64,000 nt of DNA from Alphaproteobacteria bacterium (GTDB lineage: Bacteria > Pseudomonadota > Alphaproteobacteria > CAAHEQ01 > UBA3637): assembly GCA_045660045.1 (NCBI GenBank), contig JAZRDB010000013.1, forward strand, positions 612-64,611. The letters run 5' to 3'. Below are positions 19,410-60,479 of this stretch, one piece after another (the first letter of the stretch is position 1; the number at the start of each line of letters is the position of its first letter). Both the position numbers and the translations under genes were made by a program. Below the pieces are notes generated by a model that was given only the letters and a program-made list of their open reading frames with translations, had not been told where the DNA came from and ran no database searches.

Positions 19410-20790
19410 TTTCTCCCGCTTTCAATTTTGTTGTGACTTCAGCAATTTGAGTGGCCAATTTTTTGTCTTGTTGGATTAAGCCTTCAATTGTGCGAACAGC
19501 ATGAATGACCGTTGTATGATCACGCTTGAAACACAAAGCAATATCTGGCAAAGAAAGAGGTGTCAATGTTTTTGTTAAGTACATAGCAATTTGACGAGGC
19601 CTGGCAAAAGCACGATCTCTGCGGGTGGATTGTAAATCATCCAATGAAATATTGTAATAATTTGCTACCATGCGTTGAATCTCGGGTGCTTTGACTGGGC
19701 GTTCATAGGTATGCAAAATGTCTTTCAGCACTTCTTGTGTGGTATTCATATTGATGGGATTACCAATCAATTCAGCATGTGCGATAACGCGCTTTAAGGC
19801 GCCTTCTAGTTCGCGTACGTTTGTGGTAATGCTTTTTGCCAAAAAGGCCAATACATCATCAGGGACAACAGCACCCATCTCTTTGTTCTTATCCTGCAAA
19901 ATGCCGAGGCGCAAATTTTCATCGGCAGGGGTAATATCTACAACTAAACCTTGTGAAATGCGCGTGCGCAACATATCATCGATGCTATGTAATTGAGCTG
20001 GCATAGCGTTGGCAGATAAAATAATCATTTTCTTTTCTGCAACCAATGCGTTAAAGGTATAGAAAAATTCTTTTTGTGTTTGGGTTTTGCCCAGAATGAA
20101 TTGAATGTCGTCTATCAATAAAACATCGGCAGAGCGAACCAAAGAACGGAAATTATCCATATTGTTTGTGTTGACATCATGTATAAAGCGTTGAAAAAAT
20201 TGTTCAGAGGATAAATATAGAACATTCTTTTCGGGGTGACGTTCTTTTATACGCCAAGCGATGGCATGCAACAGGTGCGTTTTGCCCAATCCAGAACCTG
20301 CATGAATATATAAAGGATTGAAGGAAATCGAATCGTCTTCGGCAATTTTTTTGGCGGCCGCATAGGCAAATTGATTTGATTTGCCCACGATAAAAGTATC
20401 AAAAGTATGGGCAGGATCCAAATAACAGGACATTTCTTCAACCGATTCGTTTTTCTCGGATGCTGTGTAGGACGCTTGTTGTGTTGGTTGAATAAGTTCA
20501 GTTTTAGGTAAAGAGGATTCCTGTACTTTTAAATCAGATTTCAATTTTAAATTGACAGTATTAATATTCGTATTTTTTGATTTCCACAAAGATTGAATTT
20601 TGTCTAAATAATTTTGTTCAATTAATTCATGGATGCAAGGGCTGGTAACTGTCAAATTCACTTGATCATTTTCAATACTGCTTGGAATTACTTTGCTGAG
20701 CCAACGCATAACAAACCGATCACGGAGGGTCTGTTCTAACTGTGTACAGATCTCGGCCCATTGTAGCTGCAATGTATTTGAGTTATCCAT
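19402..20790 (-). CDS. dnaA: Chromosomal replication initiator DnaA
   Basis: 462 aa with an AAA+ domain (Walker A GSGLGKTHLL, box VII) and a C-terminal DNA-binding domain (…TLPDIALCFKRDHTTVIHA…). Confidence 0.95.
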   Translation of the reverse strand: MDNSNTLQLQWAEICTQLEQTLRDRFVMRWLSKVIPSSIENDQVNLTVTSPCIHELIEQNYLDKIQSLWKSKNTNINTVNLKLKSDLKVQESSLPKTELIQPTQQASYTASEKNESVEEMSCYLDPAHTFDTFIVGKSNQFAYAAAKKIAEDDSISFNPLYIHAGSGLGKTHLLHAIAWRIKERHPEKNVLYLSSEQFFQRFIHDVNTNNMDNFRSLVRSADVLLIDDIQFILGKTQTQKEFFYTFNALVAEKKMIILSANAMPAQLHSIDDMLRTRISQGLVVDITPADENLRLGILQDKNKEMGAVVPDDVLAFLAKSITTNVRELEGALKRVIAHAELIGNPINMNTTQEVLKDILHTYERPVKAPEIQRMVANYYNISLDDLQSTRRDRAFARPRQIAMYLTKTLTPLSLPDIALCFKRDHTTVIHAVRTIEGLIQQDKKLATQIAEVTTKLKAGENA

Positions 20791-39364: not shown

Positions 39365-39794
39365 AAAAATTACCTTATATACAGATGGCGCATGCTCTGG
39401 AAACCCCGGACCTGGGGGCTGGGCGTGCGTTTTAGTTTATAAGGAAACAGAAAAAGAATTATGTGGTGGCGATCCAGAAACCACAAACAATCGTATGGAA
39501 ATGACGGCCGTTATTGAAGGCTTAAAGGCTTTAAAAGAACCTTGTGCAGTGGATCTTTATACCGATAGCAAATATGTGCTTGAAGGGGCGACAAAATGGT
39601 TGGCTGGATGGCAAGAAAAAGGTTGGAAAAAAGCCGATAAAAAGCCGGTTTTAAATGTGGATCTGTGGCAAATTCTTTCAGCTTTGTTGCCGCAACACGA
39701 AATTACATGGCATTGGGTTAAAGGTCACGCGGGAGATCCATATAATGAGCGCGTAGATGCATTGGCTGTTGAACAAAGAGATTCCTATAAATAA
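39342..39794 (+). CDS. rnhA: Ribonuclease HI
   Basis: 150 aa beginning [22 protein letters not shown]… with …TNNRMEM…, the RNase H catalytic motifs. Confidence 0.9.
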
Positions 39795-41083
39795 CAAAGT
39801 GTATATATTATTAAGGCCAACCATGGCAAACGTGTGACCCACCAAATCTTAGGGGCTTTTGGGCTGTCCAATAATTTAAATATTTTTTCTTGAAAAAGCA
39901 ATTGAATTGCAAAAGCAAGCAAGGTTAAAATTACAAAACTAAAACAGGGGGCGAGTTTAAGTAAAATATTGCTGCTTGTACTCAGAAAAGTAAGATAGGG
40001 TCGTGGTGTGATTGCAAGGAATAAGAATGTCAATAACGGAGAAGCTGGGATAAAAAGAACGCCCAAAATCATCAAAATGATTGTCCATGTTCTGCTCATT
40101 GGTTGAATTAAAAATGGCCACAATTTGTTGATTTGAGATAAGTCGTTTTGATATACATAAAATAAAGCACCACACAATACAATTATGCCTAAAACAGTTG
40201 TAAGAATAAGCATTTGTTTTGTTTGTGCGCGAAATTTTTGGCGAGAGGACAGGGGAACCCTGGCCCAGTAAATGGGTGCGCCTGAAAGCAGGAAAAACAA
40301 AAGGCAGGCTTGCAGAATTTGTAGCGTAGAAAGTGGCACGTCGGGAATAGGCATGTCTTGCGGGATCACCTTTGGTTCAATTACATAATAATGATAATAG
40401 GTTCGAACAATAAAACGATTTGCATTTTGTGTTTGAGGCAAAACGAATGTAGCTCGTTTATTTTCAATTTGTATATCCAAATCCAAGGGTTCTTTATTTG
40501 GACCATATACAATCAATGTGCGCGGAGGCCGTTCAAAATCCAAGACGACTTTGGTGTTGTCGCGGTCGTCCAGTTGTGCATAAGCGGCGACATTGTTGGA
40601 ATACATCGGAACTGGCGTGTTAGAGAGGGCTAACGTGATGGGAGAACACTCGGGTGTTAAAAGTGCCAAGGCCGTGCCCAAGGTGGTGGACAGATGAATC
40701 GGAGCTGTGACGCATTGGTCATCCTTGCATGCGTGCCAAGATCCTTCAACATCAAAGGTGATGGGTTTTATGGGCCTGTAAGTTAAAACCGCGCTGATTG
40801 GGTAAAGTGGAGCCTGAGGATAAGGTTGTTTGAAAGGTGTGAATAAAGCGGTTGGAAGTGGTTCGGATGTTGTGATTTTCAGGTCGGGCACGCCCAGTTG
40901 CCATTCCTCCTTGGGTAAAGCGCGAATGCCCAGATATAAAGGCCCATTGACACGCAAATCAGTCGTGCATGAGATCAATTCTACATCGCCAAAAGGTGTT
41001 TGTTGAACGGATGGTATGGTTTCTTGAGCTGTTGCGCTGACACCGAATAAAAGTAAAACAAAAATAAAAAGTTTTTTGATCAT
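39785..41083 (-). CDS. Hypothetical exported/integral membrane protein
   Basis: 432 aa with a signal peptide, a ~230-aa periplasmic region and then multiple TM helices. No assignable family. Confidence 0.4.
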
Positions 41084-41773: not shown

Positions 41774-41867
41774 TTTGAAAAAATGATATTTTTTTAAAAA
41801 AAGTAGTTGCTTTCATTAAAAAAAGTATGTAGAGTGAAGAAAAGGGATTTTTAAAAGGGAGGATTGT

Positions 41868-44800
41868 ATGCGAAAATTTGTGCGGGTTCTAGTTTTGGTA
41901 GCCACATTAATTGGGATAGCTTGTTTCTCTTCTTTTTCGCAGGCTGCTGATACACCAAAATATGCCTGGGGTGATGTAACGATTAATGGACGAACGATGT
42001 ATATTGTGGATGGAAAGCCTTATTGGGCAGCTAAAGATGGTGGTTTTTATTATGATACACCCAATGATTTTTGGCCATCAGGTTTTGTTTCTGGCATGAC
42101 AAAGGATACGTCATGGAGTTCGGCAAATTTAGGCTCTGGAGCATTGAAAACAACAGGTAAGTTAGGACGAGAGTATCCTGCCACGGCTAAAAAAGGGGTT
42201 ATTTATGATGCGGATGGAAGAACGCCAATAGGAACCTTGGTTGGAGGAAAGGTCAAATTTTGGACATATGGAACGGAAATGGTTCCAAATTCATTCCAAC
42301 CCACTTCAAATCCAACACCGATTCTGGCTCCAGCCCCAACTATTGCTTCTGGTGGTTCGGCGGCAAAAATAGCGGGCGGTTCTAGTGCTAGTACAGCTGG
42401 GCAAGGAAAGCCCATAAGCATTGCAACGGGTTCGAGCACCACAAATGGTGGTAGCAGCGCCCCGAAAACAAGCGCTGGATCAGCTTCATCTGGATCGGCA
42501 AAAGGAAGTACGCCAGCGAGTGGTGCGGCGGCTCCTGCAACACAAGGGGCATCAACCCCTGTTACTCAAGGGGCGACGGTGCCTGCAGCACAGAGAACGA
42601 GTGGTCCAACTCAAGGAGGATCTAGTCAAGTTGCTCAAGGACAAACCGGTTCAGATGCGCCTCAAGGACTTATTAAGGGCCATGATGGACTATATTATTC
42701 GGAAATTTCTTCTGTAAATGATACGAAAGGACGCGCGGCCGCTTCGTTGGAAAATCGGATGATTTTAGGGACAGGTATGACAAAAAGCGAAGCTATTCGA
42801 CACGCGGGAGCAGATGCTGTTGGTTCTGCAGATAATGTTTTTAATAAAGCTGTTAATTCCTTAAAGAGTGATTTTGAGTTTTATGATGCAACCTCGGGCG
42901 ACGTTTTTACTTATGTCCCATCTGAACAAACATGGATGGTTTCACAAACAGAATATGGTGGCGGTATCGATCAGTATGTGCGTAATTCTGGATTGAGTGA
43001 TGATCAACAGAAACTGCTTGTAAGTTTTCCTGCAACAAAATCAACAGCAGAGATTGGTAAGGAGTATAGTAATGCAACAGCGCAACGCGCTCAAGCGATA
43101 GAAGCAATGTGGCAGGAGCGTTTGGGGAGAGTCGACAAAAAGGCAGCAGTGATGCCCGAGGCGGCAACTGATGCCCCAAAAGCTGAGACAACGACGGATG
43201 CTTTCGTTGCTGCGAGAAGTCAAGATACAGCTCCAACCAATACAGCGGCTGCAGCACCAAGTAGCACGGATACATCTGTTTCTACTGAAAAAACACAAGT
43301 TAAGGAGGCGACAGGTGATACTAGACCTACAGGAGACAGAGATGTGATGAGTAGTGGGGTTATTCCCACAAATAAAACTCAATCTGAACCTGTGGGAGGC
43401 ACTGGAAATAGAACGCCATTGGAAACAGAAAAGCCTGTTCCTGGTGCAGAAGAAACGACACCAGCTGGGTCAGCAAATCAAGATACAGATTCGTTGGGGG
43501 CCCCAGCAGGTGGTGATACTGGTGGTAAGCGAGCCCGGAAAACAGAGAGTTCTGAAAAAAAGCAACCTAAAGAGAAAGGGAACGAGTCTTCTGCTGAAGG
43601 CGATAAACGTGGGGGCGGAAGTGCTGAACAAGGAAAAGGAGAGGGGGGACCTAATCAAGAAGGGTCTGAATCTGAAAAAACTGATGGAGGATCTGGTTCT
43701 GGCGATAGTGAGGCACAGCAACCCGACAAACAAAACAGTCCATCTAAAGAGAAAGGGAACGAGTCTTCTGCTGAAGGCGATAAACGTGGGGCCGGAAGTG
43801 CTGAACAAGGAAAAGGAGAGGGGGGACCTAATCAAGAAGGGTCTGAATCTAGAGAAGCTGGAGAAGAAGCAACAGGTGGTGGACGAGGTGCTGCGGCTCA
43901 GGCGACAGGTGCCAAAGTTCCTACGCAATATCTGAGCGAACAAATCAATTCTGATAACATACGGATGTTGGGTTTTGACAATGTGTTTGGTGAAAAGTCG
44001 ATATGGAAGATGGATGGGGATAAGCAACCCAAATTTGATTCAAAGACTGGCACGATTGAATTTACGAATAATACGCAAAGGCAAAGATTGTCGGATGTTC
44101 ATGGGGTAACCGTCAATGAAGATGGTAAGGTTGTGTCAAATGGGGATGCATGGGGTGATGCAACGGTTAACGCGATGAAGAGTTTGAGTAGATGGAGTAG
44201 TGATTTGACGAATTTAAAAAATACTAGTCAAGAAGTACGGACTGCTCAAAGTAAAGTGAATAAGTTGGAACAGGCAGTTGATAAAGCTAAAAGTAAGATC
44301 AAGTATCCTGGCGAAGATGGAGGTGACTCCCGGAGCAAGCTTATTGAAGCCCAAAAAAAGCTAGATGCTGCTGAGGAAGAGTTGAATAAAGCGCAAGAGA
44401 AGCAAGGGGAAGCTAAGGCAAAAACGGAACAGACGATTAATGCTGTAAGAGATGTTGAAAAGGCGGCCAAAGATCGAGCGAACCAAGCTGTTAGCAAAGC
44501 AGCCGAAGGGGATACCTCGCCTGATACCTCTGCTGATGGATCCACCTCTCAAACAGGCGCGTCTACCCCGATGCCTGAGCAGAAGAAAGATTTTGAAACG
44601 TTTCAGGCAAACTTTACTAAAGCGATAGAAGACGGCGATTATGATGCTGCGGATCAATATATCAACGAAGCACAAAAAAATGGCCTTATAAATGACTCCG
44701 AAGCAAACGAAATGAAAAATGCCACAACTCAGGCCAAAAATGCGCAAGGTTTAGCGGGCAAGATGGCTGATGAGGCAGCAGCGAATGAGGCTGATCCAGC

Positions 44801-45599
44801 GAGCAAAGTTGGATCGGTGGATTTGACGGACCCGATACGTTTGGTGCTGGCGATTTTAATACCAACGCTAGCGGAGGATCATTTGACGTTGCGTGGTGAT
44901 ATTAACATTAAAGCTGGCGAAATTGGCGAGGCTGTTGGTGCTGTTGACAGTACGGCATTAGGCACGGACCAAGGTGAAGATGCTAGCCGTGCGACGACGG
45001 TTGTTGCCGGGGCTCAAATGGTGGCACAATTGTTGCAAGCAGTGACGGTGGACTTGAGTCTGCTGAGCGAGGAAGTGAAGTTCGACGAAGAAAAAGATGA
45101 AGAGAAAGAAGAAACGCCGACCTACACAAACGTTGGGACGACAGATTTAACAACGAAGAAGACACAACAAGAAAGTTATCGGGATGAAATAAATGATGAT
45201 TCTTCGGATGAAGATGATGAGGATGCAGAAGCGAAGAAGAAAGCGGAGGAAGAAGAAGCAAAGCGCAAGGCCGAAGAGGAAGAGAAGAAGCAAATCGATG
45301 AAGCGACGAAGAAAACAATTGAAACTCGTCGGGCCGAGTTGATGAAGCAATATGTGAATGGAGCCATTCAAATTGCAGAAGGAATGAATGCGATTTCCAG
45401 CGACTTTGCCTCTCGTGCGGAGGTGCTTTCGGATTTTAGTGAGGGAATCCAAACAGAATCAGCAGGTTTTGGTTTGGCACAAGATGTGGGTAGATATGTG
45501 TTATTTGAGACGTTAAGAGGGTTGGCATTGTCATCCGTTCAAATGGGTGTTCAGGCTTCTCGTCTCTTATTTGAACAGGAGGTTAGCGATGCTGAATAA
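41868..45599 (+). CDS. Large secreted repeat protein (1243 aa); first gene of the T4SS-associated block
   Basis: Signal peptide (MRKFVRVLVLVATLIGIACFSSFSQA) and long Ser/Thr/Gly/Ala low-complexity tracts. It has near-identical 59-aa tandem repeats, coiled-coil segments and a poly-acidic/lysine block (DDSSDEDDEDAEAKKKAEEEEAKRKAEEEEKK). GGGAGG RBS. Confidence 0.6.
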   Translation: MRKFVRVLVLVATLIGIACFSSFSQAADTPKYAWGDVTINGRTMYIVDGKPYWAAKDGGFYYDTPNDFWPSGFVSGMTKDTSWSSANLGSGALKTTGKLGREYPATAKKGVIYDADGRTPIGTLVGGKVKFWTYGTEMVPNSFQPTSNPTPILAPAPTIASGGSAAKIAGGSSASTAGQGKPISIATGSSTTNGGSSAPKTSAGSASSGSAKGSTPASGAAAPATQGASTPVTQGATVPAAQRTSGPTQGGSSQVAQGQTGSDAPQGLIKGHDGLYYSEISSVNDTKGRAAASLENRMILGTGMTKSEAIRHAGADAVGSADNVFNKAVNSLKSDFEFYDATSGDVFTYVPSEQTWMVSQTEYGGGIDQYVRNSGLSDDQQKLLVSFPATKSTAEIGKEYSNATAQRAQAIEAMWQERLGRVDKKAAVMPEAATDAPKAETTTDAFVAARSQDTAPTNTAAAAPSSTDTSVSTEKTQVKEATGDTRPTGDRDVMSSGVIPTNKTQSEPVGGTGNRTPLETEKPVPGAEETTPAGSANQDTDSLGAPAGGDTGGKRARKTESSEKKQPKEKGNESSAEGDKRGGGSAEQGKGEGGPNQEGSESEKTDGGSGSGDSEAQQPDKQNSPSKEKGNESSAEGDKRGAGSAEQGKGEGGPNQEGSESREAGEEATGGGRGAAAQATGAKVPTQYLSEQINSDNIRMLGFDNVFGEKSIWKMDGDKQPKFDSKTGTIEFTNNTQRQRLSDVHGVTVNEDGKVVSNGDAWGDATVNAMKSLSRWSSDLTNLKNTSQEVRTAQSKVNKLEQAVDKAKSKIKYPGEDGGDSRSKLIEAQKKLDAAEEELNKAQEKQGEAKAKTEQTINAVRDVEKAAKDRANQAVSKAAEGDTSPDTSADGSTSQTGASTPMPEQKKDFETFQANFTKAIEDGDYDAADQYINEAQKNGLINDSEANEMKNATTQAKNAQGLAGKMADEAAANEADPASKVGSVDLTDPIRLVLAILIPTLAEDHLTLRGDINIKAGEIGEAVGAVDSTALGTDQGEDASRATTVVAGAQMVAQLLQAVTVDLSLLSEEVKFDEEKDEEKEETPTYTNVGTTDLTTKKTQQESYRDEINDDSSDEDDEDAEAKKKAEEEEAKRKAEEEEKKQIDEATKKTIETRRAELMKQYVNGAIQIAEGMNAISSDFASRAEVLSDFSEGIQTESAGFGLAQDVGRYVLFETLRGLALSSVQMGVQASRLLFEQEVSDAE
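43567..43850 (+). repeat. Tandem direct repeat inside the 1243-aa ORF (two ~107-bp copies, 177-bp period, 1 mismatch)
   Basis: Copy 1 at 43567-43673 and copy 2 at 43744-43850 are identical except gggggcgg/ggggccgg. The 177-bp period is in frame and encodes KEKGNESSAEGDKRG(G/A)GSAEQGKGEGGPNQEGSES. Confidence 0.9.
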
Positions 45600-46668
45600 A
45601 ACACTAACAGTGCTATGTGCAGGAGCTTTATTGAGCACCACGATGTTGATGCCGGTGTCATCCGCTTGGGCGGAAGGAACGTGGCAAAAGGGCGGTTTGG
45701 CAACCAACCAGGTATCCGGAGGAACAGCAAAGGCACAGAAAACTATTACGGATGTCTTGGCATATTGGGGATTACTCTCAAACAGCATCTTATTTGCGAC
45801 ATCTTGGATACCAATACACTTTTTACCTGGTATTGTGTGTACTTGGGCTACTATTATTCCCGCATGTAGAGCATACCTTGCGGGTGGTTCTACTCAGCAT
45901 GGCTTGAATATTGATGTTGCAGGTGCGGCATTGGATGGGGTGTTGTTGTATGATGCAATGCATAAAAAGGCTGTATGGAGTGAAGATATTCCTAATTTGG
46001 AGGCCCAGATTCGTCAGATTGGAAGCGCCGCTGATTTAGAGCAAGAATGTGAAGATGATGAAGAGGGGAGCTGTAATGCAACAAATGCAACATTAGATAA
46101 GACAGAAGTGTACATTAAAACTCTAAAGAACGTAGGATTGGAAGCAATTGAAGATGTGGCCGGGTCGATATTGAAGACGCCGACAGAGTTGATTAGTGCT
46201 GGCCCTTACATTCAAGAAGGTTTTGGTTCTGAGGTTGAAGGTATTGATGTGAGTAAAAGTGTCGGTAAAAAGACATCAAGTGGTACCATCTTGTGGAGCG
46301 ATTATTTGCCCGATGAAAACGACAATACAACGAATAATGGTACACGCACTACGACTGCGGTTAAAAAGGAACGAACAGAAACAGAATTAAACGATATTAA
46401 GGATCGCAAGTTGGCGCATTTACAATTGACAGGCACGGCTGGAGTAGCGCGTGCGGATATGGGTGCGACAGTGGCAAGATCCGAGAAAGCAGCGTTTGAT
46501 CGATTAAGTTCATATGTGGGGTCGGGTGATGGATTGATTGCCAATATTAAGGTTTTAACTGGTTTAGATTTAACCTTGAGTCAACGATTGAATACGCTGA
46601 ATATGTTACAAGGTCAACAAGTGGCAAACGATGCGGCAAGCGCGCTACAGTTTGTGGAAACCAAATAG
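45589..46668 (+). CDS. Secreted protein 1 of 5 (359 aa), T4SS-associated candidate
   Basis: Start at the ATG at 45589 behind a perfect AGGAGG RBS. Signal peptide MLNKTLTVLCAGALLSTTMLMPVSSAWA. Contains a hydrophobic segment and an acidic/Cys segment. The start overlaps the upstream stop. Confidence 0.5.
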   Translation: MLNKTLTVLCAGALLSTTMLMPVSSAWAEGTWQKGGLATNQVSGGTAKAQKTITDVLAYWGLLSNSILFATSWIPIHFLPGIVCTWATIIPACRAYLAGGSTQHGLNIDVAGAALDGVLLYDAMHKKAVWSEDIPNLEAQIRQIGSAADLEQECEDDEEGSCNATNATLDKTEVYIKTLKNVGLEAIEDVAGSILKTPTELISAGPYIQEGFGSEVEGIDVSKSVGKKTSSGTILWSDYLPDENDNTTNNGTRTTTAVKKERTETELNDIKDRKLAHLQLTGTAGVARADMGATVARSEKAAFDRLSSYVGSGDGLIANIKVLTGLDLTLSQRLNTLNMLQGQQVANDAASALQFVETK

Positions 46669-46677
46669 GGGGCAGGG

Positions 46678-47589
46678 ATGAGATTGAAAAAAGTTTTAAT
46701 TATATGTTTTGTTTTTTGTTTAATCTGGCAACCTTCTGTTGGATTTTCAGCGTTTATGTGGAAACCAAATTTTTATCAAAGTCTTATGGAAACGATTGTT
46801 GGATTTTTGGCACGTGAATGGAATCGGCACACAGAAACCATTCACTATGATGTGACTAATGGTTTGGAAAAAATTAAGTCCAATATTGGGATGTATCGTG
46901 ATAAAGGTGATTGTGGTATTTCTGCAACGGGGAATTCGGGATGTGACTTGACAACGCCCGAACAAGGGGCTGAAGAGGATGCAGCTATGGATGCTGAAGC
47001 GGCAGTGATTCCAGATAGTACGATTGCGATTATTACTGAAAGTGAGGATGACGGGACAATTACGCTGGATGGCAAAAGCGATAAGGAGGAAAGCAAAAAC
47101 GAAAAAGATGATACAATTGGCAGCTATGTGGTTGGTAAAAAGGGAGATAAATTTGATCAGGTGCGTGCAAACGTGACCGAGTATATCTTTATTTCTACTA
47201 AAGAAAATGCTGAGGATGTGGATGCCGATTGTCGATGCAACAAGGGAACGGGAACGGTTTGTGAAGCGTCCGAATGTGCTCAACAACGTCAAAATGATGC
47301 TTTGTATCAGGCTTCTTTGGGCGCGTCCAGTACGGCGGATTTCAATTTACAACAAATGGATAAGCGTTACCAAAACGTCACAAAGGCCGTTTCCGAAATC
47401 AATGAAGTGAGTACAATTGCGGATTTTGTGGGTAAGATGGGGCGGTTGTCTGTTTACGCATCGGATGCGGTGGCAAATATGATGACTTTGCAAACACATG
47501 ATTTACGGGCGCAATCTTACCGTAATTTGGTGTTTGGTGGAATTAATCCGGTTGATTTGTCCAAATTAGGCAAAGGAGATAAAAAATGA
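46678..47589 (+). CDS. Secreted protein 2 of 5 (303 aa)
   Basis: Signal peptide MRLKKVLIICFVFCLIWQPSVGFSAF and an acidic middle region, with a helical C-terminal region reminiscent of VirB5/TrbJ-type proteins. Confidence 0.5.
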   Translation: MRLKKVLIICFVFCLIWQPSVGFSAFMWKPNFYQSLMETIVGFLAREWNRHTETIHYDVTNGLEKIKSNIGMYRDKGDCGISATGNSGCDLTTPEQGAEEDAAMDAEAAVIPDSTIAIITESEDDGTITLDGKSDKEESKNEKDDTIGSYVVGKKGDKFDQVRANVTEYIFISTKENAEDVDADCRCNKGTGTVCEASECAQQRQNDALYQASLGASSTADFNLQQMDKRYQNVTKAVSEINEVSTIADFVGKMGRLSVYASDAVANMMTLQTHDLRAQSYRNLVFGGINPVDLSKLGKGDKK

Positions 47590-48365
47590 GAAGATTTTTT
47601 GGGGTGATGGCTGTAATTGTTTGTTTGCTGTGTGGTAGGAGCGTGAGAGCCGTTGAAGAGATGGCGAATATGTGGACGCCCATCCCTATAGTGGATCCAG
47701 TTATGATTGGTGATTCAATCCGAGGACTTACTGCTAGTATTTTGGCATTAACAAAAGCAGGACCTGAGCCAGAATTGGGGGCTGTTTTGAATGTTCAACA
47801 ACAAGAAGTTGGTGCTTTGGAAGATGGAGATGAGTCTTACCGTGTGGATGAGGGAACAGGATCTTCGGATGGATCTGGTGATTTGGCAATTTCTGCTTAT
47901 GAGTATATGAAAGAGAAGGTATTTACAGATTCCAAAAAGACGCCTTATGCACCATTAAACCGAAAATTGTCGAATGGAGCCGATATGAAGAAGGTGGTCA
48001 AGGAAATGTTCTTTATAGAAAATGAAGCAGATAATACGGAAGCAAAACAGGCCGAAATTGTGAAAAACAGGACGGAATATTTAACGACCGTTGGTAAAGA
48101 ATATACAAGATTGGCTTATGAAATGCACAAAAAAATTGCTGATGATATGTCAGCGGTTAGTGCAGATATCAACGGAAATGGTTCTATTGGTGCAGTTGCA
48201 GGTATGGATCAAACATGGAAGGCTGTCAATAAGGCGTTGATTGCAGATATCGGAATGCAAATTCAATTGATGGAGTTGGATGCGGCGAAATTTTTATCTG
48301 TTCAACCGATCATGATTATGTCGGAGAATCGTCCAGAAACGAGTAATCAAGGATCCAATGATTAG
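47586..48365 (+). CDS. Secreted protein 3 of 5 (259 aa)
   Basis: Signal peptide MRRFFGVMAVIVCLLCGRSVRA. The start overlaps the upstream stop (ATGA). Confidence 0.5.
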   Translation: MRRFFGVMAVIVCLLCGRSVRAVEEMANMWTPIPIVDPVMIGDSIRGLTASILALTKAGPEPELGAVLNVQQQEVGALEDGDESYRVDEGTGSSDGSGDLAISAYEYMKEKVFTDSKKTPYAPLNRKLSNGADMKKVVKEMFFIENEADNTEAKQAEIVKNRTEYLTTVGKEYTRLAYEMHKKIADDMSAVSADINGNGSIGAVAGMDQTWKAVNKALIADIGMQIQLMELDAAKFLSVQPIMIMSENRPETSNQGSND

Positions 48366-48375
48366 GAGGTATGTG

Positions 48376-49512
48376 ATGAAAAAGTTATTATTAGGTTCGT
48401 GTATCCTTTCTTGCTTGTTGTTAGTGGAAATAGGTGGATATGCAACAGCTGCAGACAGTGTTGCGTCGGACAGCAAAACAACGGGCGCATCGACAAGCCG
48501 TGCAACACAATACACCGATGCAAACAGTGGTTATGTGAAAAATTCTTCAGAGGGGATGAATAAAACAAAAAATAATCCGAAAAGCGAAGAAGGTGCGGAT
48601 CCTGTGTCAAAAACGGCAAAAGATGCTGATTATTCGCCAGATGCAGGGAATAAAGCCGCTCAAGTTGATATGGGAATTTCAATTGCTTCTGCGGCGTTAG
48701 GTGTTGTAGAAGCTATTATAGGTGCAAGCTTAGACCAGATGATAAGAGAATGGGTTACGACTGAAGTGTTAAGCATTGCAGTGAGCCCTGAAGTTCCTCT
48801 TCATAACGAATCAATAGCTTTTGGTTGGGGACTTCAATTTAACCCAATTGCAACCGCCGTTACCCTTGGGCATGCGGCTGTAAATAAATTTATGCGAGAT
48901 GCGACAAATATTACAGCTTCGTTCACTGGGGCTGAAGGTTTTGTGACAGATAAATGGGTGGGGCCTCATCCAAGGAATACAACAACGGCCATTATGGGGG
49001 ATATTAGTGTTACATCCGAGAAATTTGATGCGTTGACATTTGATCCAAAAGAATACGAAGGTTTGAAAGATGCTGATAAAGCTTCTGCGCGCCAGTTGAT
49101 GGATTATCGGTCTGAGCAGTTAATTCAGGATCAACGTTCATTGTCAAATGTGGCTACTGCGCAATGGGGTATTTTGTATCGTGCACAACAACGTTCTATC
49201 AAAGGATTGGCCGGTGCATTGGAATTGAAGTCTCAATTGACAGCACTGGGTGAGATCGAAAAAAAGATTTCGGCTGATTATAAAAATAAACCAAGCGCTT
49301 TGAATACGGTGGCTTCACGTCGTGCTTTATATGATGCCTTATTGTTATTAAAAATGAATGTAATGGCTGCGCGTACAAAATTGCGTTCGGAAACTTTGGA
49401 ATTGGATTTCAAGCCGATGACAAGGGAGCCTGAAATTATGGAGGACGATGAAGATCCAACCCCTCAGAATGTACCGGCTGGTCCACCTTTGTCACCAAAG
49501 GAAACTCAGTAG
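48376..49512 (+). CDS. Secreted protein 4 of 5 (378 aa)
   Basis: ATG at 48376 behind an AGGAGG RBS. Signal peptide MKKLLLGSCILSCLLLVEIGGYATA. Confidence 0.5.
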   Translation: MKKLLLGSCILSCLLLVEIGGYATAADSVASDSKTTGASTSRATQYTDANSGYVKNSSEGMNKTKNNPKSEEGADPVSKTAKDADYSPDAGNKAAQVDMGISIASAALGVVEAIIGASLDQMIREWVTTEVLSIAVSPEVPLHNESIAFGWGLQFNPIATAVTLGHAAVNKFMRDATNITASFTGAEGFVTDKWVGPHPRNTTTAIMGDISVTSEKFDALTFDPKEYEGLKDADKASARQLMDYRSEQLIQDQRSLSNVATAQWGILYRAQQRSIKGLAGALELKSQLTALGEIEKKISADYKNKPSALNTVASRRALYDALLLLKMNVMAARTKLRSETLELDFKPMTREPEIMEDDEDPTPQNVPAGPPLSPKETQ

Positions 49513-49527
49513 TAAGGGAGAAAGCTC

Positions 49528-50691
49528 ATGAAAAGAATATTGTTTTTTGGCGTGTGTTTTGTTGCTTTGTTTAGTACAACAGCTGAAGCGTTGCGCTTTG
49601 GTACGACGCCAGTTGTGCCGATTGAAATGAATACCTTAACGAAGTTTTTGCCGTCACATAATGAGGCTTTGGATAAAGCCTTAGAAGTACATAATTTGAT
49701 GACGGAATTGCCGTCTATACAAACTATGGCCGAGCAGCAAGAAAAGATGAAAAAAGAATCTCGTAAGATGAAGAAATATTTCGAGAACTTATTGAAATGC
49801 AATGAAAAGCGTTTTGGTCGTTTTAAAAATTCAAAAGAGATTTTGAAAAAGGTACGGGCCGCATATCAAGAACGCACGAAAGATTTAAAAGATGACGAGG
49901 GATATTATGCAGAAGACAGTATTGTACCTCGTTCTTTGGCTGAACGTGGCTATCTATGGGATAAAAAAAGGGACATTGAACAAGAAATCATGACGGATGC
50001 TTTGACCAATGGCCGTAAGTGGGGCGGTGAGTTGGTTAACAGAAAAAAACAAGATGTGCCAGAAGATATGAGAATGAAGATGACTGGTACTGGCTTAGAA
50101 GAGCTGATGCTAGCAGAAGATAGTACAAAAAATGCAGATGTTGCAGAAATGGATATGGATAAGACCTTGAAGCAAATGCAAGAATCCTTTATGAAGCGGT
50201 TGGCTGGTGTTGGATTGACTTTTCCGGAATTTAATCCGGCCCAAACGACGGATATCAGCAAAGTTCGCAAAGAATTGAAAGAGTTAAAAGATCAATATAT
50301 TGTTGAGGCAAAAGAATATATTGTTAAGTTGGATGAACAAGATGCAGCGCACCCACGAGCGGTAGCAAAACGCGCGGCAAGAACACGTAATAAGGCGCGA
50401 GTTTTAACGAATGTGAAGGAACAATTCCCAGAGGCATTTGCCGAGATGGAACAATTTGATCAACAAACACCGCAGCAACAGCAACTGGCTGTTATTAATG
50501 CGTTGGAGAAAGATGCAAATGGAACAGTTTATTTGACCGAAACAAATGCATTAGAGGTTGATCAACGTATCAGCGAGGCAAAAGCAAATAAAGCGATGTT
50601 GAAAACTTTTACCGATATGGCGGATGATATGTTGGAAGAAATGCGTTCAAAAAGGCCAGAGCAAGAATTTGATTTCAGTGTTTGCTCATAA
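49528..50691 (+). CDS. Secreted protein 5 of 5 (387 aa, Lys/Glu-rich coiled coil)
   Basis: Signal peptide MKRILFFGVCFVALFSTTAEA. Highly charged helical protein. Confidence 0.5.
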   Translation: MKRILFFGVCFVALFSTTAEALRFGTTPVVPIEMNTLTKFLPSHNEALDKALEVHNLMTELPSIQTMAEQQEKMKKESRKMKKYFENLLKCNEKRFGRFKNSKEILKKVRAAYQERTKDLKDDEGYYAEDSIVPRSLAERGYLWDKKRDIEQEIMTDALTNGRKWGGELVNRKKQDVPEDMRMKMTGTGLEELMLAEDSTKNADVAEMDMDKTLKQMQESFMKRLAGVGLTFPEFNPAQTTDISKVRKELKELKDQYIVEAKEYIVKLDEQDAAHPRAVAKRAARTRNKARVLTNVKEQFPEAFAEMEQFDQQTPQQQQLAVINALEKDANGTVYLTETNALEVDQRISEAKANKAMLKTFTDMADDMLEEMRSKRPEQEFDFSVCS

Positions 50692-50702
50692 GGAGAATTT
50701 GA

Positions 50703-51332
50703 ATGGCCAATTCAGGAAGAACACCTTGGCAATTGACACGCCTGCTGATGATTCTTTGTTGGCTATTGTGGATTATAACATTTTTTATAACGGTCACTTT
50801 GTTTCAGGCTGTTCTGCAGATTCACGTTGTATCGCAAGTTCTTCAAAACGTGGAAAAAAGCTTTATGTGGTTTAGCCAAGATTTAGTTCGAGCCACGCCG
50901 TTGAATGTTGTTGATCGGGGGCGTTTGGATGAAATGTTGGTACGGTATTATTTGGAAATGAGGTATTCTGTGATTCCTGATCGAGCCGAAATGGAACATC
51001 GTTGGGGTGAGAATGGTATTGTGGCATATTTGTCCAGCCCTGCTGAATATAAGAATTTTAAACCAAATTCAAGTTTTTTTGACAAGGTTGATAATATGCA
51101 ACCGAGTGTGGTGGATATTTTGAAAGTGGATCGCAAAGGTACCTATTTTACTGTTGACTTCGACGTCTATACTTTCGATGGATCCACAAATTGGAGAAAA
51201 GAACCACGGCGCGTTGTGGTACAATATACCTATGCATCGGGGCGTAAGTTGTTGGGGAAATCAATATCAAATCCATTTGGTTTTATTGTAACGCGGGTGG
51301 ATGAATCTGACAGAAAATCGGTGACGCAGTAA
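50703..51332 (+). CDS. virB8: Type IV secretion system protein VirB8 (copy a)
   Basis: 209 aa with a short cytoplasmic N-terminus, one TM helix (LLMILCWLLWIITFFITVTLF) and a periplasmic NTF2-like domain with VRYYLEMRYS and …VVVQYTY… motifs. Confidence 0.7.
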   Translation: MANSGRTPWQLTRLLMILCWLLWIITFFITVTLFQAVLQIHVVSQVLQNVEKSFMWFSQDLVRATPLNVVDRGRLDEMLVRYYLEMRYSVIPDRAEMEHRWGENGIVAYLSSPAEYKNFKPNSSFFDKVDNMQPSVVDILKVDRKGTYFTVDFDVYTFDGSTNWRKEPRRVVVQYTYASGRKLLGKSISNPFGFIVTRVDESDRKSVTQ

Positions 51333-51401
51333 TTTTTTAATTGATAAAATTATTTAAAGTGTTAAAATGAAAATTATGAAGGGATAACAGAAAGGGTGAA
51401 A

Positions 51402-51578
51402 ATGCAAAAAATAGTTTATACATGTTTGGCTGTAGCAGCCATTGTTTTGGGGGCTTGTGGAACGATTTATGAAAAAGCACCGGTTGGAATTGGCACGGAA
51501 TATTCCGAGTTGAAAAAATCCCCTTGTGCATGTTTGGAGTTAAAGAAAGCACCAGAAGTGCCAGAATGGTTCTCGTAA
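51402..51578 (+). CDS. virB7: VirB7-like small lipoprotein
   Basis: 58 aa with lipobox IVLGAC. Its size and its position between two virB8 genes and upstream of virB9 match rvh-type loci. Confidence 0.5.
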   Translation: MQKIVYTCLAVAAIVLGACGTIYEKAPVGIGTEYSELKKSPCACLELKKAPEVPEWFS

Positions 51579-51594
51579 ATTAAAGTGAGGATGT

Positions 51595-52302
51595 ATGGCG
51601 GATCAAGAACAAACGTCTTCTCATCCACGCAATGCGCGTGAGGTTTTGCAAGAAGAGCGCTATCTTTGGATGGCGCGTGCGTTTGTTGTGATGATGGTTT
51701 TGGCCATTATTTGTGATGTGATTTTGTTGATCGCTTTGGCAAATGTGACGCCTGTGTTACGTATTCAGCCATTTTATTTGGAAATTCAAAACAAAGACCA
51801 ACAAATTGTTTCGGTAAAACGTCCCTCGCTTGAAACATTGAATTCGGATACCTTAAAAGAATCTTTGGTTCGTCAGTATATCTTGTCGCGTTTTGGTGTG
51901 GGGTCTGATCTGACGGAACTGGAGGAAAGATGGGGACCCAAAGGGCCTGTGTTTTGGATGAGTGATCAATCTGTGTATGATGAATTTGTTCAAAAACAAT
52001 CTGTTCCTGCTCAAAATAAAGCTCGTAAAGATAATTTTATTCGTGATGTGCGTGTGTTAAGTGTGAACAAAACGCATGATGGTGGGCCGATGGGATCGGA
52101 TATGTGGCAGGCTGAATTGGAATTTCAAGATACCGACAGAACAACCACCAAACCGATTATTTCTAATTGTGTGGCAAATATGGCCACTGCTTTTCGTCCA
52201 ACAAAACCCGGTTTGACATGGTCAGATCGTCTTAAAAATCCACTTGGTTTTGTTATGTTGGATTTTGGTATTAAGTGTACCCAACAAAAAACGAAAAAAT
52301 AA
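51595..52302 (+). CDS. virB8: Type IV secretion system protein VirB8 (copy b)
   Basis: 235 aa with a TM helix (FVVMMVLAIICDVILLIALANV) and an NTF2-like domain (…LVRQYILSRFGVG…WQAELEFQD…). Confidence 0.7.
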   Translation: MADQEQTSSHPRNAREVLQEERYLWMARAFVVMMVLAIICDVILLIALANVTPVLRIQPFYLEIQNKDQQIVSVKRPSLETLNSDTLKESLVRQYILSRFGVGSDLTELEERWGPKGPVFWMSDQSVYDEFVQKQSVPAQNKARKDNFIRDVRVLSVNKTHDGGPMGSDMWQAELEFQDTDRTTTKPIISNCVANMATAFRPTKPGLTWSDRLKNPLGFVMLDFGIKCTQQKTKK

Positions 52303-52377
52303 TATTTTTTTACTGGACTTTCTTTTTGTTTTTAGATAAGCTGAAATAAAGCGGTGTCTAGACATAAGGAGGAACCG

Positions 52378-54054
52378 GTGAAAAAAAAGATATTTTTTAG
52401 GGGAGTTTTGCTTGTTTTAACAGGGGTTTTAGGGGCCTTTGCTTTGCCAGCTGTTGCTCAAATGAATTTACCAACAGATCCTCAAGCTCAACAAGTAGCA
52501 GATGCTATTGCTGGCGCTTCGGGGGAATATGATGAGGTGAATTTGGATTACATCCACCCACTTGGTATGCAACAAAAAGCATGGAATAATCCTTTGGCAC
52601 ATATGGGATCTGGACAAAGTAAACCAGGTTATTCGAAATATAATTGGACACCAGACACTGTGTTGCCTGTGCGTTTGCGTGAAGGAATGATGACTTTGAT
52701 CAATTTGCCAACATGGGAGTTGATTGAAAAAGTTCATATTGGCGCGCCGGAATCATTTAATGGGGAAGTTGTTTCTCCAAACTCAATGCTTTTATATGCT
52801 GATCCTTCGTATTTGGGCGTGGATGGAAATATGATTATTTTTGGTCGATCCGGCAATCGTTATGTGTTCTATTTGCGTAGTGAGACATTTAACACAGATA
52901 AGATTACACAATCTGTTGTGGATGTGTTGGTTGGACCACGTTGGACACCCGTTGCGGATGGGGGACAAATGGTTAATGGCAGTGGCGCTTCTTCTATGGC
53001 TTCAATGCCTTTAATGGCAGCTGGTTCACCGATTTCGCGCGGTGTCAGTGGAGGAAGTTCTGCAATGGCAGTTAATTTGGCAGACGAATGGAAAAATAGC
53101 GTGCCAATGGATCCAGAAGCATTGAAGTTTGATTTGGATATGTTTTTACCAAATCCAGATGATGTAGATATTGCCCCAGACAATGTGTGGCGTGATAATA
53201 TCTTCACATACATTGATTTGGGACCAAAGGCATTAACAATGGTACAACGACCAGTTGTGAGTTTGATTGTTCAAGATACAGAGGTGCCCGTCGGATTTAG
53301 AACACGTGGTCCGAACAGCCGTTTGATTGTTGTAGAAGCTATTGGTGATTTGGTCTTGCGAAATGGCCAAAAAGTGATTTGTATTAAATTGCGTCGTGAT
53401 CCCGCGGCTGGTTTGGAATATACCGATTATTCCGGCTTTAATGAAAAACCATATGCTTATAACCAGCAATTACCTGTTCGGGGTCAAGATTTGCCGAACC
53501 CAGAAGTAACGTTGTATGGTGGTACTGTGTTACATGGTCAAAATCCATATGCTCCAGCGCAAAATGGTGGCACAATGAACTTGGCTTATGCCACAGAAAC
53601 AGGTGGTATGAATCCGTATGCGGGTGCAATTAACCCATATTGTGATGATACAACGGGGGCTAATCGTTGTGGTGGTACAGCCGCATGGCAACCAATTCAC
53701 GCCATTCCAAGTAATGTGCGTAATTCGTCTGCAGCCCATGCAAATATTGATGCAATTCAAGCAAATCGAAATGTGATTATGCCAATTGCCGCAAAAGAAA
53801 ATATTGCATTGGAGTTTGGTACAGCTGCCGAAATCGCGGATTTGGAGAAATTGTGGGAACAGATTTATTCCAACAATGCTGATTTATTGGCTGGATATGA
53901 TCCATATTATTCCGCAGATACATCAGCAACGGGTGATATGGTTGATTTGTTCCGTTTGCGTGTTGGGACTGTCAAAGATGCCGAAACGGGTGATGCGTTA
54001 TGTCGGAAATTGGGGCGTCGCGGTTATTCATGTTCGGTGGTCAGAATTAAATAG
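52378..54054 (+). CDS. virB9: Type IV secretion system protein VirB9 with a Gly/Ser-rich insertion and a C-terminal SPOR-like peptidoglycan-binding domain
   Basis: GTG start at 52378 behind an AAGGAGG RBS gives the signal peptide (V)KKKIFFRGVLLVLTGVLGAFALPAVAQ; the ORF track starts at 52354. It has a VirB9/CagX N-terminal domain (…TLINLPTWELIEKVHIG…RYVFYLRS…) and C-terminal domain (…FTYIDLGPKALTMVQRPVVSLIVQD…ICIKLRR). A ~200-aa extension follows, ending in a SPOR-like motif (DLFRLRVGTVKDAETGDALCRKLGRRGYSCSVVRI). Confidence 0.75.
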   Translation: MKKKIFFRGVLLVLTGVLGAFALPAVAQMNLPTDPQAQQVADAIAGASGEYDEVNLDYIHPLGMQQKAWNNPLAHMGSGQSKPGYSKYNWTPDTVLPVRLREGMMTLINLPTWELIEKVHIGAPESFNGEVVSPNSMLLYADPSYLGVDGNMIIFGRSGNRYVFYLRSETFNTDKITQSVVDVLVGPRWTPVADGGQMVNGSGASSMASMPLMAAGSPISRGVSGGSSAMAVNLADEWKNSVPMDPEALKFDLDMFLPNPDDVDIAPDNVWRDNIFTYIDLGPKALTMVQRPVVSLIVQDTEVPVGFRTRGPNSRLIVVEAIGDLVLRNGQKVICIKLRRDPAAGLEYTDYSGFNEKPYAYNQQLPVRGQDLPNPEVTLYGGTVLHGQNPYAPAQNGGTMNLAYATETGGMNPYAGAINPYCDDTTGANRCGGTAAWQPIHAIPSNVRNSSAAHANIDAIQANRNVIMPIAAKENIALEFGTAAEIADLEKLWEQIYSNNADLLAGYDPYYSADTSATGDMVDLFRLRVGTVKDAETGDALCRKLGRRGYSCSVVRIK

Positions 54055-54062
54055 GGTGTAGT

Positions 54063-57000
54063 ATGGCTGGTAGTCACGAGAGTTTATCAGAGCAATCAAG
54101 ACGTAGAACCTCATGGATTTTATCTGTGTTGGGGTTGATTGTGTTAATTCTCTTTGTGGCGGTTTTGTGCTCGATGCGCAAAAAAAGCACTCAGGTTGTG
54201 CAACGCGAGGATCGTCCAAGTTTTGTTGTTCAATCAACATTCGGAGATGACTCAGATTTCAGTGGAACATTACCTGAATTTGGTGTGCGTAATGCCCAAT
54301 TAGTGGTTACGCCTGATAATGTTGATTTGTCACAGGTTGTTTTGGGATCTCAAGCAGAAGCTGCCTTGGTATTGCGCGCTGAAAATGGTCCTTTAGTCTT
54401 TTTGCAAAAATATCTTGCAGAAGCGCCAGAAGGTGGCTTTATGTTGACTGGTCCTTGTATGGAAAAAACACAATTAGAAGAGGGCGAGGAATGTTTATTG
54501 AAAGTAACTTGGGCACCTATTACAGTTCAAACTATTCAAAACACATTGACAATTGTATGGCGAGAAGATAATGCTCGTGTGTTTCAAGATGAAAGAACGC
54601 AGATTCAATTGAAAGCCAGCTCGACAGATTCCAAGGAATGTGTGTGCTGCGAAATTGAAAAAGACAAAGATCCAAAGGTGCCACGTAAGGTAGTTGGCAT
54701 TGATGGTCAAGAGCGTGAATTAAAAGATGGCGAAAAAGTTGTTGGCGAAGTTATTTTGGATGAAGAGGGAAATGTTGTCGCGATTGTTGAGCCAGAACGT
54801 GTTGCTTTGGGCTTGAACAACGAATATTTGGGCCGTGTGACGGATCGTCGGACGGTTGAAGATAAAAATGGCGAAGTGCTAGGACGGTTATTGGGAGATG
54901 ACACGCTGGTTGATTCTGAATTTAACGTCCTGGGTGCCGCTGTCCCATTGGTTTCTGTGTTGGATGCTCAAGGCGTTGTTATTGGGAAGATGGTGGCCGA
55001 TGATGATGGAGCTCGTGTTGTGGATGCGGAAGGAAATGTTATTGGTACACCTCGTGTAGATAAATCGGTGGTGGATAAAGCTGGTTTCCAAATTGGTATG
55101 TTACGTGATTGGGGCGCAGCGTTGGATTTATCGGGTAATTACATGGGTGTGATTTTACCAACAGCCGCGGTTATTGGTACAGATAAAAAGATTATGGGCT
55201 ACATCCAACAAAACGGTTTTGTCACAAATGATGCAGGCGCTTTGGTGGGCGGAGTGGTCCCCAAAGGTGCGGGTGTTGGAACTGGATGTCGTTCATATGG
55301 AACAGTTGCATTAACGGGCCAAGTCAAAGATACATATGGTCAAGTGATTGGTCGTGTGTTATTGGATGGGGCTGTTGTTGATACGAATTTCAACGAAATC
55401 GGTTCTGTTGTGAATCAAGGTTTGATTGTCAACATGAAGGGAGATGTTGTTGGTTTTGTCAATTCTGAAGGGAAAGGGGTTGATGGTAAAGGTAATTTGA
55501 TGGGCTGTGTTTCGCCAAATGGCATGGTGGCTGCTGGGAAAAAGGTTGTTGGTGGTGTGATGCAAAAAGGATATGTAACAGGTGAAACTTGTGGTGTTCT
55601 TGGTTCTGTTTATCCAAATGCTCAGGTGATGTCTGCCGAGCTACGTGAGATTGGTAAGGTGCGTGCTGATGGGTATGTCATTAATGGTAATAACAAAAGA
55701 ATAGGAGTTGTTGTGCCGCATGGAACAGTTTTGGCTGAAGGATGTCGTTTGGTTGGCGTGATTTCTGTCACTGGACAAGTATTGAATCAACAAAATATGT
55801 CTGTTGGGTGTATTAATATGGAGAAGAAAGCGATTGATACCGAGGGACGAGAAGTCGGCAAAATTACGCCAACAGGCCCTGTTTTGGCAGCAGATGGTTC
55901 TTTGGTTGGTCGTGCACGGTATGATGGTCGCATTGTTGATAAAACAGGCAAGATTATTGATTGCGTGAGTCCAGAAGGTACAGGAGTTGGAACCAAACGG
56001 GGCGTTGTTTTGGATGAAAATGGTTTGCCAACAGGATGGACTGCTTTGGCTGGGAAGTGTTATAATGATCGCAACGAAGAAGTAGGGACAATCGCTTTTA
56101 ACGGATGGGTTTCGGATAAAGAAGGTAAAATGATCGGTTTTATGCCTGCAGATGGTGTTGTATTTGGATTGGATGGTGTGGTCTTAGGAAGCTATAATCA
56201 ATTGATGGGAACTGCAACCGATACAAAAGGTGATCCGCTGGGACGTGTGATGCCGGATGGAACTGTGTTAGATTCAGATGGGCATAAGATTTTGGGATCT
56301 TTAATTCCTGAAAGTGCAACGTTTCTTAGTTTGGATGGCTCTGTTTTAGGAACGTTAAATTATGAAGGTCGATTATTAAATGAAACAGGACAATCTGCAG
56401 GGCGTGTTTTATCTGATGGTGCCGTGTATAATGCCGAAAACGTTTTAATTGGTGGCGTGATTAGATCTGGGATTGTTTTGGCGGCTAATGGATCAGAGGT
56501 TGGATTTGCCAATGTCAAAGGGGATGTTTTGTCAAAAGGAACACGTATTGCCAATTTATTGCCCAATGGATTGGCTGTGACGCCGGATAATCGAGTGTTA
56601 GGTCGTTTGTGGGATAATATGACTGTTGCCGTGTCGGCTGGTGGTGTGATTGGCCCAGTTGTGCTGCGCGCGACTTCTGGCGATAACTCGACATATCAGG
56701 CTGCCGTGTATGATAGAAATGGTAGTTATGTTGGAGCGATGTCTGGCTATGGTGTTTTGTTGAACAGTGATGGGCGCTTGGGCGGCATTGCTTTCCCTGT
56801 CACAATGGTTGTTAATATGGACCATGAATTAATTGGTTGGGTTGGCTTTAGAGGGATGGTGATAAATGCAGAAGGACAAGTCATTGGTCAATTAAGTCAA
56901 AATGGTTTAGTGATGAACTCGACAGGAGCGATTGTTGGAACAGTATTATCTAAAGGAACGGTTGTTGATGGGCGTGGTGGTTTTGTGGGGCGTGTAGCTG

Positions 57001-60470: not shown

Positions 60471-60479
60471 GGAGCTAGC

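Follow-up and report, generated by a model that had tools for sequence, protein, structure and literature searches.

In a 64,000-nucleotide (nt) stretch of an alphaproteobacterial genome assembly (contig JAZRDB010000013.1, positions 612 to 64,611; hereafter the window), we examined a pair of near-identical 107-nt direct repeats lying within a gene for a large secreted protein (41868-45599, + strand) at the head of a chromosomal type IV secretion system (T4SS) operon. The repeat is genuine: 36 codons, situated in a flexible linker, have recently been duplicated in frame. Considering its structure, its position in the encoded protein and the comparison with related loci, it most probably represents a genuine recent in-frame duplication or gene-conversion tract of 107 nt, placed in an allele-specific, disordered linker of a hypervariable secreted protein, and is a footprint of that protein's diversification rather than a dedicated switch.

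Structure of the repeat and its place in the protein

The features of the repeat and of the gene that carries it are the following (aa, amino acids).

43567-43673, + strand: repeat copy 1, 107 nt, encoding aa 567-602, PKEKGNESSAEGDKRGGGSAEQGKGEGGPNQEGSES
43674-43743, + strand: spacer B, 70 nt, unique, aa 603-625, EKTDGGSGSGDSEAQQPDKQNSP
43744-43850, + strand: repeat copy 2, 107 nt, encoding aa 626-661, differing from copy 1 at one base
41868-45599, + strand: repeat-bearing gene, 1243 aa, opens the T4SS operon; without a match in Pfam, NCBIfam or the PDB
41868-41945, + strand: signal peptide, aa 1-26, MRKFVRVLVLVATLIGIACFSSFSQA
43203-43925, + strand: allele-specific low-complexity stretch that holds the repeat, aa 446-686
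43926-44819, + strand: module common to a subset of alleles only, aa 687-984, containing '…NIRMLGFDNVFGEKSIWK…' and a coiled-coil-like part
44820-45596, + strand: conserved C-terminal domain that defines the family, aa 985-1243

The two copies are identical at 106 of 107 bases (0.9% divergence), the sole mismatch being a G at 43615 against a C at 43792, which is non-synonymous (GGC, Gly, to GCC, Ala). Both are read in one frame and thus encode the same 36-residue peptide, P/SKEKGNESSAEGDKRG[G/A]GSAEQGKGEGGPNQEGSES, save for this Gly-to-Ala change, with the second copy following a 23-residue spacer. The start-to-start spacing is 177 nt, or 59 codons (59 x 3), and the pair is accordingly an in-frame intragenic direct repeat, comprising near-identical copies within one open reading frame (ORF) at a period divisible by three. 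An earlier sequence-only reading had given the same coordinates, lengths, single mismatch and spacing, all of which are exact; it was also right that the period is a multiple of three, such that loss of one unit by recombination would cost precisely 59 codons and leave the frame intact, and that the host gene is that of a large secreted protein, a single long ORF with an N-terminal signal peptide.

Self-comparison of the window with blastn returned the repeat pair at E = 5.8e-48 and no other off-diagonal match at E <= 1e-5, while a 33-mer taken from the core occurs exactly twice, compared with no occurrence in 100 shuffles. The contrast previously drawn with degenerate repeats elsewhere in the locus is thereby lost, given that blastn detects no other DNA-level repeats in the window, degenerate or otherwise; older degenerate copies or an array of the unit were not found around the repeat, nor does spacer B have another copy or a source within the window. 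At an offset of 177 nt, the match profile falls to background identity directly beyond both edges of the core, and only 107 of the 177 positions in the period match. This gives the order A-B-A-C, in which 107 nt of core (A) and a unique spacer of 70 nt (B) are followed by a second core and then by unrelated sequence (C). A simple tandem duplication was rejected on these grounds (107/177 matching positions, flanks at background, a unique spacer), the pair also going unreported by Tandem Repeats Finder. What had been described as a 59-aa module resolves into a repeated part of 36 aa and a unique spacer of 23 aa, which are rich in Gly, Glu, Ser and Lys and form no folded module. An interpretation as an RNA element or a mobile element was also discarded, with no Rfam match and no inverted repeats across the repeat region, and only two copies, both in frame.

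The host protein as a whole is rich in Gly, Ala, Ser, Thr, Lys and Glu. Hydrophobic residues make up 5% of aa 446-686 (1% for aa 540-670), which places this stretch on the disordered side of the charge-hydropathy boundary. Because the repeat falls at the C-terminal end of this hydrophobic-poor, predicted-disordered stretch, 25 aa ahead of a module junction at aa 686/687, it appears from the sequence to be a duplication within a flexible linker and not of a folded module. The left edge of the adjoining module (aa 687-984) corresponds to a recombination junction in other alleles. At the N-terminus, the motif M-R/H-x-F/L-x-K-V-L-L-L-G-T is kept in many family members, whereas the C-terminal domain consists of two conserved blocks with an acidic linker between them; its predicted structure is helical, with a long helical hairpin modelled at a pLDDT (predicted local distance difference test score) of about 80 in models of overall pLDDT 56-62. 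Searches with family profiles for a VirB5/TrbJ/CagL-type or any other structural match to the protein or its C-terminal domain found no Pfam or NCBIfam match and no PDB sequence match, and Foldseek searches with the C-terminal domain models, which are of modest quality (pLDDT 56-62), gave no match at E <= 0.001. Two overlapping ORFs (43354-43935, + strand, and 43470-44027, − strand) were taken as shadows cast by the purine-rich strand that does the coding, since it is the long ORF that connects, in a single frame, a signal peptide and a C-terminus that are both conserved.

Cassette replacement in a family tied to a secretion operon

An exhaustive hidden Markov model (HMM) search of 1.84 billion protein representatives identified 67 proteins carrying the C-terminal domain of the repeat-bearing protein, 58 of them at E <= 1e-10; word-index homology searches were swamped by low-complexity words and missed known orthologues. 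Among the HMM matches listed, the domain lies at or near the C-terminus, with unrelated sequence of about 100 to 1650 residues in front of it, and one match, a 5594-aa plectin-repeat protein (P0062), was dismissed as spurious. The conserved C-terminal part spans about 180-260 aa with invariant motifs EG-x-N/S-x-x-S..F..R and D..R..L.E..R..AL (alignments A1 and A4). Translation initiation factor IF-3 of the window falls in a 90% cluster in which the named members are 'Alphaproteobacteria bacterium' metagenome-assembled genomes (MAGs) from ruminant gut, and the contigs encoding those IF-3 proteins are syntenic with the window, as are three species-representative MAGs, two of which derive from goat abomasum. 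Orthologues, including the window protein, measure 1136, 1179, 1214, 1243, 1363 and 1827 aa, and can be aligned only in the signal peptide and the last ~260 aa.

In the window and at loci L001, L003, L008, L012, L015-17 and L030, as well as at the distant loci L028/L029, the family gene lies upstream of virB7-8-9-10 with a giant beta-flower VirB10; L027 is a short contig and carries no information on operon position. The most distant member, of only 393 aa, has its operon laid out in the same way, a beta-flower VirB10 of 2191 aa included, but with different chromosomal surroundings, and because of this the C-terminal domain appears to be the T4SS-linked part of the protein and the N-terminal region a variable add-on. 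Together, these proteins constitute a small, previously undescribed family: a hypervariable, cassette-shuffled secreted protein tied to a T4SS operon of distinctive make-up, in gut Alphaproteobacteria that are uncultured and have been met in metagenomes alone.

Comparison of close relatives revealed the extent to which the N-terminal region is exchanged. The nearest relative of the window, L012, shares 85% nt identity across 10.7 kb of upstream flank, yet there is no nt similarity between the two from codon 7 to about codon 995 of the gene, and only aa 980-1243 of the window protein are common to both. Likewise, L008 and L009 have upstream flanks that are 96.7% identical at the nt level, i.e. 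at species level, and encode proteins of 1827 and 1214 aa that share their last 241 aa only. Module sharing is mosaic and out of step with flank relationships: aa 687-1243 of the window protein are common to L009 (59% identity) despite flanks of about 76%, with the aa 687-984 module present in L009 and absent from the closest relative, L012, while aa 399-1179 of L012 are common to L008. A comparison of P0029 and P0030 revealed a sharp recombination breakpoint: the '...NILGFDNVFGE...' module and everything after it match at 100%, and the sequences ahead of it are unrelated. This breakpoint corresponds to aa 686/687 of the window protein (nt 43925/43926), 25 residues past copy 2 of the repeat, and the same boundary divides the allele-specific from the shared part of that protein. 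No similarity to any family member was detectable for aa 27-686, and blastn self-comparison found no silent donor cassettes within the 64-kb window. Because modules are mosaic with respect to flanks, and aa 27-686 have no similarity within the family, the dominant mode of variation of the gene is the swapping of whole, unrelated N-terminal cassettes by recombination between close relatives, a mode that the earlier reading had overlooked.

Two further observations were made among the relatives. Between infC and the orthologue of the repeat-bearing gene, L008 (about 10570-10740) has an insertion of ~170 nt in which a ~65-nt unit (…CATCCTGAG…GGATCTTGT.TTGTGTGGTAAGATTCTTCAC.TACGTTCAGAATGAC) occurs twice in direct orientation; its conspecific L009 lacks this unit, which looks like a small mobile repeat. 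Also, contig L026 (1-4535) opens with the end of a protein whose C-terminus matches that of the window protein at 94% identity and with the first 31 aa of the next ORF, after which all resemblance to the operon ceases; the contig may be chimeric, or the genes may be arranged differently there.

Copy-number variation and competing accounts of the repeat

Gain and loss of repeats is a secondary mode of variation, and is observed in other alleles of the family. In-frame internal repeats of 228 nt (93%) and 219 nt (95%) occur in L008, repeat units of 51 nt in L001, and tandem repeats of 42, 24 and 75 nt in L021; overall, 12 of 57 family representatives possess internal repeats (>= 80% identical over >= 20 aa). 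One difference in copy number was found, between L021 (JGI) and L030 (ENA), which are identical over 7.6 kb save for one single-nucleotide polymorphism (SNP) and a 126-nt in-frame indel corresponding to four versus one copies of a 42-nt unit, AEDEDLEKRIEKM[K/R] (L021 3509-3676 versus L030 7771-7812). For the window itself, look-ups of exact proteins in an exact-match contig index (the repeat-bearing protein, IF-3, HPF and EIIA) returned no second allele, a 24-mer from the core had no matches in JGI metagenomes, and nine metagenome loci and three genome loci, including GTDB representatives, have no nt similarity to window positions 41888-44850. Two close direct repeats of about 100 bp are unstable in bacteria, being a substrate for RecA-independent slippage and for homologous recombination. 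Because 107-nt copies 177 nt apart are suited to both processes, rare 177-nt deletions or expansions are expected at this repeat, which is not an array and bears no sign of a programmed switch.

Several findings weigh against interpreting the repeat as a recent product of ongoing diversification. A whole-protein search for a conspecific allele returned the repeat-bearing protein alone, such that neither variability nor stability of the 177-nt unit was observed. The assemblies from which L021 and L030 derive (JGI 3300033463 and ENA ERZ27257207) also share the contig L012/L013, 100% identical over 13.8 kb; for this reason they may come from the same or related samples, and the L021/L030 difference may stem from the way in which the assemblers dealt with a tandem repeat. 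Near-clonal contigs from different samples (L003/4/5/6 and L012/13/14, 99.98-100% identical) are without length change. Furthermore, the A-B-A-C arrangement is not what a simple tandem duplication leaves: because 177 matching positions would be expected and 107 are present, two histories are compatible with the data, either a recent duplication with non-contiguous insertion, or an earlier duplication of 177 nt in which conversion has lately made the cores alike again. The divergence of 0.9% fits both a recent duplication and a conversion tract, in agreement with the earlier suggestion of recent duplication or ongoing homogenisation.

The second of these histories amounts to concerted evolution, in which the units of an old 177-nt tandem duplication have diverged outside a 107-nt tract restored by gene conversion, and we regard it as possible but somewhat doubtful. 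The identical tract ends sharply on both sides, as conversion tracts typically do, and spacer B weakly resembles the 70 nt that follow copy 2, at a score reached by only 4 of 500 shuffles. This similarity may, however, reflect shared purine-rich composition only; the upstream flank shows none (score reached by 53 of 500 shuffles), and the unit peptide resembles its neighbourhood in nothing beyond composition (136 of 300 shuffles). A fixed duplication without ongoing dynamics, i.e. a recent neutral lengthening of a disordered linker that plays no role, is a credible alternative, if short of probable. Such an event would accord with the disordered composition, with linker lengths and sequences that differ freely between alleles, and with clonal contigs that do not vary, but less readily with the intrinsic instability of close ~100-bp direct repeats in bacteria, or with a family that shows repeated independent duplications and one difference in copy number.

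It is rather unlikely that the repeat is an active length-variation hotspot, with populations polymorphic for one, two, three or more units and a phenotypic effect, antigenic or on T4SS function, comparable to that of cagY. The in-frame geometry of the copies, the established T4SS operon context, the recurrence of internal repeats through the family and the orthologue with four versus one copies of a 42-nt in-frame unit on otherwise identical contigs (L021/L030) all point in this direction, as does the precedent of Helicobacter pylori cagY, a T4SS gene with many direct repeats whose recombinational rearrangements are invariably in frame and alter the protein (PMC2194252, PMC3585145). Conversely, the repeat comprises two copies only, separated by unique sequence and not forming an array, with no second allele found in which polymorphism could be observed; alleles recovered in identical form from several samples do not differ in length, the peptide encoded by the repeat is disordered and of low complexity with no evident binding or structural role, and the gene is not a VirB10/CagY homologue. 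An assembly artefact, whereby short-read assembly of a metagenome, confronted with a repeat or with mixed strains, produced the second copy or the count of two and the G/C difference is a strain SNP, is very improbable. The protein is indeed the single NCBI member, on one 91.8-kb metagenome-type contig, its relatives are MAGs, and the L021/L030 discrepancy indicates that repeats in orthologues of the gene can differ between assemblies. Nevertheless, the reading frame is kept through to the conserved C-terminal domain, and the unique spacer B is joined to the core on both sides, which would need reads spanning both A-B and B-A and therefore implies at least two copies in some genome. A true copy number below two is thus unlikely, while underestimation of the true number by short-read assembly, or assignment of a strain SNP to one copy, could have occurred.

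Under the preferred interpretation, of a genuine recent duplication or conversion tract in the linker of a diversifying protein, the protein is built of three parts: a conserved signal peptide, an exchanged N-terminal region of about 100 to 1650 aa, and a conserved, probably helical C-terminal domain of ~260 aa, the last of which ties it to the chromosomal T4SS operon (VirB7-VirB8-VirB9-giant beta-flower VirB10-VirB11). The duplication lengthens the protein by 59 residues of Gly/Glu/Ser/Lys-rich spacer just upstream of the module junction. Misalignment of the copies, through replication slippage or homologous recombination, would then delete 177 nt or add units in frame, changing the length of the linker without destroying the protein. 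The variable part is presumed to be surface-exposed, and may be subject to pressure from a host or competitors.

The secretion operon, known analogues and biological meaning

The repeat-bearing gene heads a chromosomal T4SS operon, because VirB8, VirB9/CagX, VirB10/TrbI, VirB11 and others lie downstream of it in the same orientation; infC lies on its upstream side. This operon context is kept in at least seven relatives, including the most distant family member, which lies in another chromosomal neighbourhood. The downstream genes are the following.

45589-50691, + strand: five consecutive signal-peptide ORFs of about 359, 303, 259, 384 and 387 aa, no Pfam or NCBIfam match
50703-61463, + strand: T4SS core genes, VirB8-like to VirB11
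50703-51332, + strand: VirB8-like
51396-51578, + strand: lipoprotein in the VirB7 position, 60 aa, lipobox LGAC, between two VirB8-like genes, 65-97% conserved in relatives
51595-52302, + strand: VirB8
52354-54054, + strand: VirB9/CagX
54063-60470, + strand: VirB10/TrbI, 2135 aa, with beta-flower repeats
60480-61463, + strand: VirB11

The first of the five signal-peptide ORFs overlaps the repeat-bearing gene, beginning 11 nt before its stop. All five are syntenic in every relative examined, including the distant L028, and diverge faster (33-88% aa identity) than VirB9 (71-92%). Paralogy between these ORFs and the C-terminal domain of the repeat-bearing protein was considered and is not supported (best hhalign E = 0.023 over 40 columns). 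VirB10/TrbI possesses nine stretches of the 5-fold beta-flower domain (PF21785) together with PF21784, all ahead of the TrbI domain, and the distant lineage has a counterpart of 2191 aa with beta-flower domains (L028, 20053-end; L029, 15450-end). Literature searches on the T4SS of this clade, or on beta-flower VirB10 proteins, found nothing.

Additional features were noted in the surrounding sequence. Upstream of infC, a divergently oriented ORF of 432 aa (39785-41083, − strand) has no Pfam match and is 33-79% identical at the aa level among relatives, compared with 86-98% for IF-3. Ahead of the repeat-bearing gene (41790-41860), a promoter-like block, AAAAAGTWGTTGC-N7-AAAAAAAGYATGTA, is followed by an AGGGAG ribosome-binding site and is conserved in all six loci compared; a simple sigma-70 scan was silent. 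The window also includes dnaA, with the T4SS operon about 21 kb away from it. The window genes recorded for dnaA and a ThyX homologue lie at 19402-20790 (− strand) and 16188-17528 (+ strand); the ThyX homologue has 446 aa, of which the Thy1 model covers only residues 9-215.

The gene was compared with several known systems. Streptococcal alpha C/Rib and M proteins and staphylococcal SD-repeat proteins carry multi-copy, head-to-tail arrays with documented copy-number polymorphism. The repeat described here is likewise near-identical and direct, lies in a signal-peptide protein and has a period divisible by three, such that units can be gained or lost without frameshift, but it is a non-contiguous pair (A-B-A-C) in a Gram-negative T4SS operon protein. 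Anaplasma Msp2/P44 and Neisseria PilE are antigens with conserved ends and a hypervariable centre diversified by recombination; with these, the gene shares a conserved export signal and C-terminal part, wholesale replacement of a central or N-terminal region, and mosaic alleles incongruent with the genome phylogeny. It differs in that no silent donor cassettes are present in the 64-kb window, replacement was seen between strains and not within a clone, and the sequences are not homologous. VirB5/TrbJ-type minor pilins and the duplicated Trw surface subunits of Bartonella are secreted, fast-evolving T4SS-operon proteins outside the membrane core, and resemble the present protein in these respects and in being mostly helical, whereas the latter is 5-8 times larger, stands at the operon head and has no VirB5, TraC or CagL match in sequence or fold. 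Identity as a VirB5-type minor pilin was consequently not supported, there being no profile, PDB or Foldseek match.

By analogy of function, the nearest counterpart would be H. pylori cagY. Both are T4SS-locus genes for large proteins with direct DNA repeats, and recombination in cagY yields in-frame variants whose variable part is thought to face the host. CagY, however, is a VirB10 homologue with an extraordinary number of repeats, while the present protein lacks a TrbI domain and has VirB10 encoded separately (54063-60470), and its allele holds a single repeat pair with no large repeat network. Membership of the CagY type therefore fails on comparison, because the protein is not a VirB10 homologue, has one repeat pair and has no known functional variation.

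Taken alone, the repeat is a routine, ordinary in-frame duplication, and its context, a new hypervariable T4SS-linked family, is more notable. In practical terms, it offers a cheap length-polymorphism assay, by PCR or read mapping, for tracking strains in rumen and gut samples. A more far-reaching and, in our judgement, improbable proposal is that the product of the gene is the subunit (adhesin, tip or shield) that is exposed and varies antigenically in a distinct and so far undescribed type of chromosomal T4SS, whose cassette-exchanged N-terminus is fine-tuned by in-frame repeats, with the 177-nt unit acting as a CagY-like rheostat of the interaction between T4SS and target. If true, this T4SS type would be defined by a giant beta-flower VirB10 and six family-less secreted proteins in uncultured Alphaproteobacteria of the ruminant gut. 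The replacement of the entire N-terminal two-thirds, even between strains with 96.7% identical flanks, is a signature of strong diversifying pressure at the interface with a host or competitor; should this be so, the protein would be the best candidate for the specificity determinant of the T4SS, and repeats such as the one described here would be its source of short-term variation.

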